From the NCBI GenBank assembly GCA_963827165.1, contig CAWGZR010000009.1:263156-327155 (forward strand): 64,000 nt of DNA, read 5' to 3'. The notes under the pieces are model-generated. The model was given only the letters and a program-made list of their open reading frames with translations, did not search any database and had not been told where the DNA came from. A program made the translations under genes and the position numbers. This document shows, piece by piece, positions 51,325 to 53,839 of the stretch. Position 1 is the first letter of the stretch. Each line of letters opens with the position of its first letter. The DNA comes from Candidatus Bathyarchaeota archaeon. Its GTDB lineage: Archaea > Thermoproteota > Bathyarchaeia > Bathyarchaeales > Bathycorpusculaceae.

Positions 51325-51428
51325 GCATAGATAGTTTTTTAAGAAAGAGACTATATCTTCTGCGCTGAATTTGGCAGGGGAGCACTTGCTCTAGGCTATT
51401 CTGAGTTCGCCCCCTTCATCCAAAAGTT

Positions 51429-51716
51429 GTGGTGAGCGGCTTTCTAGGCATGACGCATAAACGAGGAAACAGACGTTCGTCCAAATCCTATGCGATTCGC
51501 GAACAGCTGCATGATGCACATAGGTTTGTTAGCGGTGAAGCTTTTCGTGACAGACTAATCAGTGAAACTGTCTGCTTAACTACCATTGATGCGGTTGTGC
51601 GGCACTTAGCAGAAACATTTGAGCAAGCCGCCGCCGAAGCCGTGCCTGAAGTAGAGCCAGGTCTAGTTCTTAGCAACACTGTTGGCGACGGCGCATTCCA
51701 ATCGTTAGAAGCATAA
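51429..51716 (+). CDS. Hypothetical viral protein
   Basis: ORF leads into the AAGGAGG RBS of the next gene; start more likely ATG ~51449. Confidence 0.5.
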   Translation: MVSGFLGMTHKRGNRRSSKSYAIREQLHDAHRFVSGEAFRDRLISETVCLTTIDAVVRHLAETFEQAAAEAVPEVEPGLVLSNTVGDGAFQSLEA

Positions 51717-51729
51717 GGAGGCATAATAG

Positions 51730-52005
51730 ACGGAGACAAATGAAGAGGAAATCGAGCAACCAGAGATTTGTCCGGACGCTAACAAAAACCCCGTTTGCCC
51801 TTACATCACTGCCATACACACAAACACGGCTCAAGTAAACAGAATAGAAAATGCGCTAGTGGGAGAAGACTTGCAGTCGGGCCTTGTGGCTAAAGTTCAA
51901 CAGCTTGAAGTAACCCAAAAAATCCTCATAGCGTTAGGAAGCACGAGTCTGGTTGGCTTGGTTAGTCTTGTCATTATCTTGTTTGAGAGGTTGGTGATCC
52001 GGTAG
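51730..52005 (+). CDS. Coiled-coil + C-terminal TM protein (XhlA/holin-like); start codon damaged or non-canonical
   Basis: Missing from the ORF track: TETNEEEIEQPEICPD…RIENALVGEDLQSGLVAKVQQLE…LVGLVSLVIILFERLVIR*. AAGGAGG RBS is followed by ATAG-ACG; the stop overlaps the ParB GTG. Confidence 0.65.
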   Translation, partial: TETNEEEIEQPEICPDANKNPVCPYITAIHTNTAQVNRIENALVGEDLQSGLVAKVQQLEVTQKILIALGSTSLVGLVSLVIILFERLVIR

Positions 52006-52538
52006 TGTCAATTGTTATTCCAGCCGCTGAAACGGTAAAGCTCAGCGAAGTTAAGACGGATGGGCAGAACCCAAATAAAATGAGCAGAGAGCAGCTCGAA
52101 CGGCTCAAGAGTTCTATCAAGAAATGGGGCTTCATCGTTCCCATCATTACCAACAAGGACCTCTTGATAGCGGATGGAGAACAGCGTTATACAGCTGCTA
52201 AAGCCTTGGGTATGGCTGAAGTTTCAGTTATTCGCTTGCCCGTTGAAGACGTCGACCGCAGGTTACTTAGACAGGTTCTCAACAAGCTCAGAGGCGAACA
52301 CCAAAAAGACTTAGACCAAGCCGAATTTGATCGCATAATCCAAGCGGGAAGAGAAGATGATCTCAAGTATCTGCTTATGCTTTCCGATGAAAAACTGAAA
52401 AACTCAAATGAAGAGAAAGGCATCAGCTTGGCTGCCTCTTTTGAAGTTATTATAGAATGTGATGATGAGACAATCCAAGAAGCCGTTTATAACAAACTAA
52501 TCGGTGAAGGATACAAATGCCGAGTTTTGACTTTGTAA
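52005..52538 (+). CDS. ParB/Sulfiredoxin N-terminal domain protein
   Basis: NPNKM….LKSSIKKWGFIVPII….IADGEQRY.AAK.LG. Confidence 0.88.
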   Translation: MSIVIPAAETVKLSEVKTDGQNPNKMSREQLERLKSSIKKWGFIVPIITNKDLLIADGEQRYTAAKALGMAEVSVIRLPVEDVDRRLLRQVLNKLRGEHQKDLDQAEFDRIIQAGREDDLKYLLMLSDEKLKNSNEEKGISLAASFEVIIECDDETIQEAVYNKLIGEGYKCRVLTL

Positions 52539-53200
52539 AAACGTGGAATAAGCCAAGCAGTTTCCGCGCTCAGTCCGTCATAGGAAGCTTCACTCTTGTT
52601 GATTGCAAGATGGAAAAACACTTCACAGGAACGATCCCAATAGATGATGGCGCTTGGCAGATAGGCGTAATTGTTGGCCGCAGTGGCACAGGAAAAACAA
52701 GCATCGCAAAAACACTCTTTCCCGAGAGCTATATCAAAGGTTTTGCTTACACGCATGAATCCATACTTGACGATTTTCCAGAGGGACAACAAGTTAATGA
52801 GATAACAAAGAACCTCTGCAGTGTGGGCTTTGCTTCTCCGCCCGACTGGCTCAAAAGCTATGACGCTTTAAGCCAAGGTGAAAAGATGCGTGTGGACATC
52901 TCAAGAGCTCTTAGCTTAGAGCAGCCAACCATCGTATTTGACGAATTTACAAGCGTTGTAGATAGAGAAATTGCCAAAGTCAGCGCCTACGCAATAAGCA
53001 AAGCCGTTCGAAGAACAAACAAGAAATTCATAGCCGTAACATGCCACTATGACGTTATCAATTGGCTGGATCCCGATTGGGTTTTCTGCACAGACACAAT
53101 GGAGTTTAGCCGAAAAAAAGAAGCAGGCCGCCCGTTGAGCTCCAAGTTTATCGGTGCGGCTCTTCCCTGTGGCAAATGTTTCGGCAATATCACTATCTAA
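52517..53200 (+). CDS. ABC-type ATPase (viral, GNAT-associated)
   Basis: GRSGTGKTS Walker A, LSQGEKMR signature, FDEFTSVVDR Walker B and VTCHYD H-loop. Confidence 0.9.
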   Translation: MPSFDFVKTWNKPSSFRAQSVIGSFTLVDCKMEKHFTGTIPIDDGAWQIGVIVGRSGTGKTSIAKTLFPESYIKGFAYTHESILDDFPEGQQVNEITKNLCSVGFASPPDWLKSYDALSQGEKMRVDISRALSLEQPTIVFDEFTSVVDREIAKVSAYAISKAVRRTNKKFIAVTCHYDVINWLDPDWVFCTDTMEFSRKKEAGRPLSSKFIGAALPCGKCFGNITI

Positions 53201-53613
53201 ACAGCAAACTCGGCGCCGGAGTCAGATGCTACGCAGCAATCTATAATCAAAATCCCATTGCCTTTATCGCTGTAGCGCACGTCCGCATGAAAGCAAATTA
53301 TTATCGGGTTAGCCGCCTTGTAGTCTTGCCTGATTACCAGGGCATCGGTATAGGGAAGCGTTTATTGAATTTTGTTGCTGAGCGTTATACGTCTCAACTG
53401 CCGGAGATTCCTTTCTATATAGTTACGAGTAATCCTCAGCTCATCCGAAGTAACTTGTATGGTTGGCGTGTGAAGCGTGTTGGCCATGGCTCTAGTGGCA
53501 GAAATGATAGCAGGATAAATCGGGAGCTTGTGAAGTCAAATTCCAAGCGACGTCTAAGCGTATCCTTACAGTATATTCCTCAGAAACACTATGGAGGCGC
53601 CACTTTTGCGTAA
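53119..53613 (+). CDS. GNAT (Mom-like) acyltransferase, reached in the -1 frame from the ATPase
   Basis: RSRPPVELQVYRC…WQMFRQYHYL…SRLVVLPDYQGIGIG…TSNP. The linker-like segment is in frame upstream of the internal ATG at 53176. Confidence 0.85.
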   Translation, partial: RSRPPVELQVYRCGSSLWQMFRQYHYLNSKLGAGVRCYAAIYNQNPIAFIAVAHVRMKANYYRVSRLVVLPDYQGIGIGKRLLNFVAERYTSQLPEIPFYIVTSNPQLIRSNLYGWRVKRVGHGSSGRNDSRINRELVKSNSKRRLSVSLQYIPQKHYGGATFA

Positions 53614-53791
53614 TTCTGCAAAAGATAGAGTAGGTTTGTCACTGCCCAATAGTTTGCGCGGCAAACATTGCCGTGGTCTTGGTTGTAGGCGAAAAATCTC
53701 TAGGACAAACAAAAGTGGTTACTGCCGAAGTTGTTTTGGCCGTTTTGTGCTTCATGCTAAAGGAACCAAAGCACATTTAAAGTCCCCTTAA
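53591..53791 (+). CDS. Small Zn-finger viral protein
   Basis: CRGLGC…NKSGYCRSC. Confidence 0.5.
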   Translation: MEAPLLRNSAKDRVGLSLPNSLRGKHCRGLGCRRKISRTNKSGYCRSCFGRFVLHAKGTKAHLKSP

Positions 53792-53839
53792 AGTCAAACA
53801 GTTAACTTTTTTTGTTTTGAGTTTGGGAACAACTTGTTT

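Follow-up and report, generated by a model that had tools for sequence, protein, structure and literature searches.

The dnaX gene of Escherichia coli (tau/gamma) undergoes a −1 frameshift at A_AAA_AAG, with a hairpin downstream of the site and a Shine-Dalgarno-like element upstream, and dnaX of Thermus carries an A9 run at which transcriptional slippage occurs. The transposase OrfAB of the IS3 family (e.g. that of IS911) and the G/GT tail chaperone of phage lambda are −1 frameshifts as well, each giving a long fusion beside a short product. For archaea, the available portion of a 2021 review (PMC8211752) names a single cellular −1 frameshift that has been tested, that of fucA1, which encodes the alpha-L-fucosidase of Saccharolobus solfataricus, besides a few cases in archaeal viruses, and states that it is unknown whether other archaeal genes use −1 frameshifting. 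On the protein side, the closest system is "GNAT coupled with an ABC ATPase", for which the accessible part of PMC7824862, citing its authors' earlier work, predicts acylation of a DNA base; the term "frameshift" was not found in that part. The gene described here, which belongs to a soil archaeon known without cultivation, breaks into two reading frames at seven consecutive A residues (A7), downstream of which an RNA hairpin is predicted; to −1 frameshifting, a known kind of recoding, it adds an A7-plus-hairpin design and evidence of selection on both frames.

All features lie on the forward strand of the window, i.e. the whole stretch of DNA that was analysed (64,000 nt). A ParB-like gene of 177 aa (52005–52538; Pfam ParB_N, E 5.3e-8) overlaps with its 3' end the start of the frame-0 ORF (52517–53200), which encodes an ABC-type ATPase of 227 aa, the short product (Pfam ABC_tran, E 5.2e-8; phrog_11143 positions 13–201, E 6.8e-57). 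Residues 1–201 of this product correspond to the ATPase and residues 202–227 to a 26-aa tail read in frame 0. The slippery heptamer A_AAA_AAA (53113–53119) is in X_XXY_YYZ phase, the ATPase frame reading CGA AAA AAA GAA, and the two Lys residues that it encodes, K200 and K201, are invariant in 29 aligned homologues. It is followed by a 7-nt spacer (53120–53126), the sequence of which varies among relatives (alignments A2 and A3), and by the predicted stimulatory hairpin (53127–53160), in which, according to RNAfold, eight GC-rich pairs with one bulged U form the outer stem, six pairs a weak inner stem and three nucleotides the loop. The frame-0 stop TAA (53198–53200) comes 26 codons after the second AAA of the heptamer. 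Read in the −1 frame after a slip, the sequence from 53119 to 53613 encodes a linker and a GNAT acetyltransferase domain (Pfam Acetyltransf_1, E 5.5e-9; phrog_11143 positions 197–351, E 5.6e-32); the −1 frame is open over 53110–53613, begins PKKRSRPPVELQVYRCGSSLWQMFRQYHYL and runs on into the GNAT. A TAG stop of the −1 frame lies one codon 5' of the heptamer (53107–53109), so that a shift into the GNAT frame is confined to 53110–53197; across the loci, the −1 frame mostly becomes open 3 nt 5' of the A-run. The heptamer, its phase and the spacer, which a preliminary description of this DNA had pointed out, were confirmed in the sequence, and ORF translation bears out the position of the GNAT in the −1 frame and of the frame-0 stop 26 codons further on. 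A GGAG motif at 53101–53104, 8 nt 5' of the heptamer, is speculatively a Shine-Dalgarno-like stimulator; its first G is invariant and the other three positions are at least 90% conserved in alignment A2, a conservation that is not independent evidence because the motif also codes for a conserved Met-Glu. An A7 run alone is ordinary, the 64,000-nt window containing 57 matches against 64 expected; what goes beyond chance is the whole layout conserved across relatives.

This layout resembles that of dnaX in its homopolymeric slip site of Lys codons, in the hairpin predicted a few nucleotides downstream and in a single ATPase gene that would give rise to two proteins at a defined ratio, but the shifted product is the short one in dnaX and the long one here, and the GGAG motif of the window is a candidate stimulator only. 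Moreover, the short-run-plus-hairpin and long-run designs that distinguish dnaX of different species are both present within the ATPase-GNAT family. With IS3-family OrfAB and lambda G/GT the locus shares a site of the type A_AAA_AAG or A_AAA_AAA with a structure (here a predicted one) downstream, an upstream ORF that ends soon after the site, a shifted product that is the longer, two-domain protein, and the multi-copy or mobile nature of the element. The proteins are unrelated, however, and the present case differs by its archaeal host, by the fusion of an ATPase to a GNAT enzyme and by a frame-0 tail under selection. The likeness to fucA1, as far as the available portion of the review goes (PMC8211752), extends to the archaeal host, an A-AAA-AAT heptamer with a putative stem-loop, a −1 overlap of the ORFs and a joined product that is the functional full-length enzyme; whereas fucA1 is split in two strains only, its close relatives being full length, the ATPase-GNAT split is found in about 120 loci and is known from sequence (same portion of PMC8211752 for fucA1).

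The two halves of the gene behave as parts of one protein family. A single profile, phrog_11143 (357 positions), covers both, and the N-terminal ABC-type ATPase and the C-terminal GNAT form one polypeptide only by way of a −1 shift. In a search of 1.84 billion cluster representatives, relatives at about 40–55% identity were mostly continuous fusions of 352–388 aa. When the ATPase is used as query against such long relatives, the alignment stops at residues 190–208; the reading of the window in frame 0 and then in frame −1, on the other hand, aligns with 24 continuous proteins (352–372 aa) without a break at the junction, the linker motifs R-P...W..F..YHYL being aligned as well, with identities of up to 107/199 residues in the ATPase part and 53/135 in the GNAT part. 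The JGI label for the fusion family represented by phrog_11143 is "ABC-type ATPase with predicted acetyltransferase domain", and we take the label of the ATPase-GNAT family to be COG2401.

Conservation of the split was assessed in 87 genome loci, namely the best 80 of 148 relatives in species-representative genomes, which come from Bathyarchaeia and a few other metagenome-assembled genomes (MAGs), and seven other places in the source genome. None of these 87 is in frame, and 86 have the −1 relation at an in-phase A-run of 7–9, the sole exception, L019, having A8 where its nearest relatives have A9. The most common class is A7 with the hairpin motif (71 loci), followed by A9 without hairpin (10 loci) and A8 with hairpin (three loci); A9 with hairpin, A8 without hairpin (L019) and A7 with an altered hairpin (L065) occur once each, the class of one own-genome copy, L087, having been read by eye. 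At the protein level, the best 120 matches (70–93% identity), from many metagenomes and Bathyarchaeia MAGs, measure 196–282 aa and none reaches the length of a fusion. The 80 loci from IMG/VR viral contigs are more mixed: 36 are in −1 (ten with A7, one with A8 and 25 with A9), one is in +1 and 43 are in frame. Of the latter, 41 are distant and devoid of a long homopolymer, and two (L126 and L127) carry A10 at the junction; among viral-contig loci above 59% identity, the only one in frame is L126 (74% identity). Taken over genomes and viral contigs, the split is retained in about 120 loci, down to approximately 47% identity. The distance from the run to the frame-0 stop is the same in all relatives examined, 81 nt, or 82 nt where an A9 run ends one base into a codon (e.g. 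L005–L008), and the frame-0 product has a common end, ...I[TI]I before the stop, in 29 of 29 aligned homologues. Damaged copies exist, the −1 ORF being cut short in 8 of the 80 genome loci that represent the best of the 148. Three of the loci (L041, L072 and L080) were binned into MAGs that bear the names Anaerolineaceae or Phycisphaerales; their contigs are short (3–18 kb), and they may be mis-binned archaeal or viral contigs or may reflect a wider host range.

We consider that the locus most probably encodes a programmed −1 ribosomal frameshift giving both a short ATPase and an ATPase-GNAT fusion. The interpretation had been put forward in the preliminary description and is supported here: neither of the two contrary outcomes named there was found, the run being A7 without gaps in the assembled contigs described below and none of the 87 genome loci (best 80 of 148 and seven own) being an in-frame fusion. 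The gene of an ABC-type ATPase joined to a GNAT would, in this proposal, be interrupted on purpose. Ribosomes that read straight through would make the 227-aa ATPase with its 26-aa frame-0 tail, whereas some would slip back by one base at 53113–53119, both Lys-tRNAs re-pairing with AAA, probably because the GC-rich hairpin, 7 nt further on, makes them pause. The slipped ribosomes would continue in the −1 frame and produce a 366-aa ATPase-GNAT fusion, presumably the ancestral full-length form of the family. As only a fraction of the ribosomes would slip, at a presumed efficiency, a fixed ratio of short ATPase to fusion would result, and both products would presumably be used.

The slip site itself is strictly conserved: across 83 distinct A7-hairpin loci, with related loci treated as independent although they are not, none of the 21 possible single-base changes of the heptamer was seen. 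In the hairpin, residues 53127–53134 pair with 53152–53160 around the bulged U and form the outer stem, the six pairs of the inner stem including G-U pairs. RNAfold returned the fold described in the preliminary account for the region 53105–53175, with −28 kcal/mol compared with −18.5 ± 3.1 for shuffled sequences (z −3.1, and −2.9 in a repeat; 1 of 200 shuffles was as good); three other members of the hairpin clade did not fold better than shuffled versions of themselves (z −1.4, −1.1 and +0.1). The pairs of the outer stem are kept in 67–76 of 76 distinct A7-clade sequences, pair 22–40 of alignment A3 being broken in 9 of the 76, and three C-to-U changes in one arm retain a G-U pair. In the count introduced above, the hairpin arms had undergone only 2 of 51 possible changes, whereas elsewhere in the overlap 68 of 192 had occurred (p 1.4e-6), and at four-fold codons that are conserved, the third base has 0.02 bits within the arms (n=5) compared with 1.69 bits outside the overlap (n=83). 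No covariation was detected in the 76 A7-clade sequences (score 0.089 versus 0.084 for shuffles, 46 of 500 shuffles reaching it, and no compensatory change), and RNAalifold found no consensus structure over all 80 junction sequences. The case for the hairpin is thus made by its position, its folding energy and the conservation of its arms, part of which could be accounted for by dual coding since both frames are selected in the overlap.

Two signal types can be distinguished within the family, A7 (rarely A8) with a nearly invariant hairpin, as in the window, and A9 without hairpin. The association is close: the hairpin is present in 82 of 85 A7/A8 loci and in 1 of 34 A9/A10 loci, and none was detectable in the seven A9 loci that were folded (z −0.7 to +2.0). 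This pattern fits the idea that a short run needs a stimulator and a long run slips unaided, and a stimulatory role of the predicted hairpin is plausible. Since the A9 clade is split without a hairpin, however, the hairpin is not required for recoding in the family in general. The preliminary description had proposed to look for the −1 overlap, the slippery site and a covarying hairpin in homologous viral ATPase/GNAT pairs; the −1 relation at an A-run is kept in 36 of 80 viral-contig loci, and the support for the hairpin is qualified by the lack of covariation and by the A9 subgroup, which does without one.

The main rival of a ribosomal slip is programmed transcriptional slippage, in which the archaeal RNA polymerase would add one A, so that an A8 mRNA would code for the in-frame fusion and the ribosome would read normally. 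It is a serious rival above all for the A9 relatives, though for the window we regard it as improbable. Every recoding site is a homopolymer, A9 without hairpin is widespread in the family (10 genome and 25 viral loci), and in L126 and L127 the in-frame state with A10 at the junction makes the length of the run the sole difference between split and fused forms. The run of the window, however, has only seven A residues and is always accompanied by a predicted structure 7 nt downstream, at a position suited to act on the ribosome, whereas an RNA structure downstream would still be untranscribed while the polymerase sits on the run. The run-crossing contigs from RNA libraries likewise show no inserted base, with the reservation that they report the majority form only. 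The A7 run is crossed gap-free by contigs from DNA (runs X1 and X2) and from RNA libraries (X12 and X19), and no insertion or deletion at 53113–53119 is listed in the contigs of these four public runs, which give the majority form and not a minor share of A8 in DNA or RNA, the RNA libraries moreover possibly containing DNA. The contigs that span the run with 0 gaps comprise a DNA contig of 440 nt (X2) and RNA-library contigs of relatives of 358 nt (X12, record 10) and 249 nt (X19, record 13), the latter weakly suggesting that the bulk transcript keeps A7. The X1 contigs stop at 53122 and 53132, which we take as assembly breaks in a repeated family. The data separate the two mechanisms in part; slippage of the ribosome is favoured because the Lys-tRNAs can re-pair perfectly, because the structure is placed for the ribosome and not for the polymerase, and because the majority form of the RNA is A7.

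Selection on the overlap bears on a second alternative, according to which two separate proteins are made, the ATPase ending at 53200 and the GNAT starting either at the ATG at 53176 or by termination coupling at 53200, with no fusion. Overlapping gene pairs are common and gene callers do annotate two genes; besides the ATG of the window, an ATG is found within the first 45 codons of the −1 frame in 58 of 65 intact A7-clade loci. Of the seven intact loci lacking it in this interval, however, five are also without GTG or TTG, and the position of the window Met is V, L, T or I in several loci, so that the GNAT frame has no conserved start codon. The substitution counts in the A7 clade, which again treat related loci as independent, also speak against this alternative. 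In the single-coding flanks 197 of 200 possible free synonymous changes were seen in at least two sequences. Non-synonymous changes reached 26–42% of those possible versus 98–99% for synonymous ones. In the part of the overlap that lies outside the stem arms, changes altering frame 0 while leaving the −1 protein as it is numbered only 18 of 35 (p 1e-13 against the 197/200), and those that are silent in frame 0 and alter −1 numbered 20 of 38 (p about 1e-13). The latter kind is depleted already in the spacer, loop and inner stem (10/14 versus 197/200, p 4e-4) and, among the 21 distinct loci of the A9 clade, which lack the hairpin, over the interval from the run to the conserved Trp (15/34 versus 158/191, p 6e-6), where the depletion of frame-0 changes is weaker (21/33, p 0.018). 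As changes altering the −1 frame are depleted from the run onward, protein-level selection acts on this frame from the slip site onward and thus also ahead of the candidate internal starts, where the frame aligns, too, with the linkers of the in-frame fusions. Independent production of the two proteins would in addition leave the invariance of the in-phase heptamer unexplained; it agrees poorly with the data and we consider it unlikely.

The frame-0 tail seems to matter in its own right. The −1 Leu codon that overlaps the frame-0 stop is only CTA (44 loci) or CTG (14 loci), which keeps TAA or TGA, and no locus examined has lost the stop, which suggests selection for the length of the short product. 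An AlphaFold2 model of the short form, computed with the 29-sequence alignment, has a mean pLDDT of 66, and the tail (residues 201–227) scores below 50, giving no hint for or against a folded tail.

Phase variation at the DNA level, by which replication would add or remove an A and switch cells or virus genomes between split and fused alleles, is in our opinion very unlikely. Homopolymers are mutable, L126 (74% identity) is in frame with A10, and L019 has A8 against the A9 of its nearest relatives, but none of the 87 genome loci is in frame, a single viral locus above 59% identity is, and the contigs of the four runs contain no indel at the run; under such switching, moreover, no selection on the frame-0 tail or its stop would be expected, whereas both show it. 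A10 in L126 and L127 is one A more than the A9 of their neighbours, and these two loci may represent natural fused alleles or assembly slips. Finally, although the assembly is a MAG and roughly one in ten family copies is damaged at some other place, a miscalled A8 (the caveat raised in the preliminary description) or a pseudogene frameshift is refuted, since assemblies made independently in many studies show the same split, as do divergent paralogues within a single genome, the run is gap-free in DNA and RNA-library contigs, and both ORFs stay open under purifying selection, with non-synonymous change depleted.

A quick tree was built from the ATPase part and rooted at the midpoint for drawing only. 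The split forms cluster together (SH-aLRT 95) and are separate from the main in-frame clade, with which three long-branch sequences group, L127 (in frame, A10), L128 (+1, T9) and L141 (split, A9). Within this midpoint-rooted tree the A9 forms branch first, and the A7-hairpin state requires at least five changes, which suggests repeated switching or recombination at the joint. Both signal types coexist within the source genome (G000, 3.1 Mb), which has eight cassette places with ATPase identities of 51–100%; the seven other copies (L082–L088; contigs C13, C5, C12, C11, C3 and C10) are 51–92% identical and three of them are in pieces. One of these copies, L087 on contig C3, is a mosaic paralogue: compared with the window over 53164–53818, its GNAT is 79% and the small downstream ORF 78% identical, and its ATPase only 51%. 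The DNA similarity of L087 begins at 53164, just past the hairpin, which suggests recombination at the frameshift joint.

In 91 of 92 loci, tblastn places a ParB-like gene directly before the ATPase, and the ParB-like and ABC-ATPase/GNAT pair belongs to the predicted DNA-acylation family. The window gene shares with the phage system of PMC7824862 the domain order, the match of both halves to phrog_11143, a ParB-like partner upstream and relatives on viral contigs. The function is predicted only, and the cassette of the window differs in standing alone among cellular genes, no formyltransferase gene having been seen beside it. The window cassette measures approximately 2.3 kb and its neighbours are genes for histidine kinases and a NosD-like surface protein, so that nothing in the window marks it as a provirus; neither a formyltransferase-like third gene nor an adjacent terminase was seen beside it. 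The viral context mentioned in the preliminary description thus applies to the relatives of the cassette that occur on IMG/VR contigs, but not to the neighbourhood in the window. Searches with NCBIfam and PADLOC returned generic ABC, GNAT and ParB matches and one partial mad3 match, far below the family cut-offs where these exist. The ORF next to the cassette genes (53591–53791, forward strand) overlaps the end of the GNAT and encodes a 66-aa Cys-rich protein that looks like a zinc ribbon by eye; it has no Pfam or PHROG match and follows the GNAT in only 7 of 92 loci. On the other side, a region of about 680 bp 5' of the ParB-like gene (51327–52004) contains no long ORF and is 73–81% identical at the DNA level to L001, L005, L085 and L086; the similarity starts directly after the end of the histidine-kinase gene (51324), and the region may hold a promoter or a small gene or RNA, or may mark where the mobile unit begins on the left.

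If both products are made, mixed ABC dimers with one or no GNAT are a possibility in a ParB-linked system predicted to acylate DNA. A broader and distinctly more tentative reading, which we would put forward as a possible but doubtful whole, is that of a dual-coding switch, in which the overlap of 26 codons would combine two selected peptides with an RNA stimulator. The family would exchange the A7-plus-hairpin and A9-alone signals (by five or more switches on the ATPase tree, or through recombination at the joint), and the short ATPase with its own tail would act as a regulatory subunit that sets the number of GNAT domains per ABC dimer of the predicted DNA-acylating enzyme, in archaeal viruses and their hosts.

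In a literature search that covered neither supplements nor subscription journals, so that absence from print is unproven, no paper on an ATPase-GNAT frameshift was found. Gene callers annotate the ATPase and the GNAT as two genes throughout the lineage, and as annotation in this way splits the enzyme lineage-wide, any study of the predicted DNA-acylation system has to allow for two proteins being made. The family offers, in uncultured Bathyarchaeia and viruses, a natural series of variants (A7 with hairpin, A8, A9 without hairpin, and A10 in frame) that is well suited to testing slippage by archaeal ribosomes or polymerases. A different slip design at the same domain joint is seen in L128, a viral-contig locus of 49% identity in which the GNAT is in the +1 frame at a T9 run.
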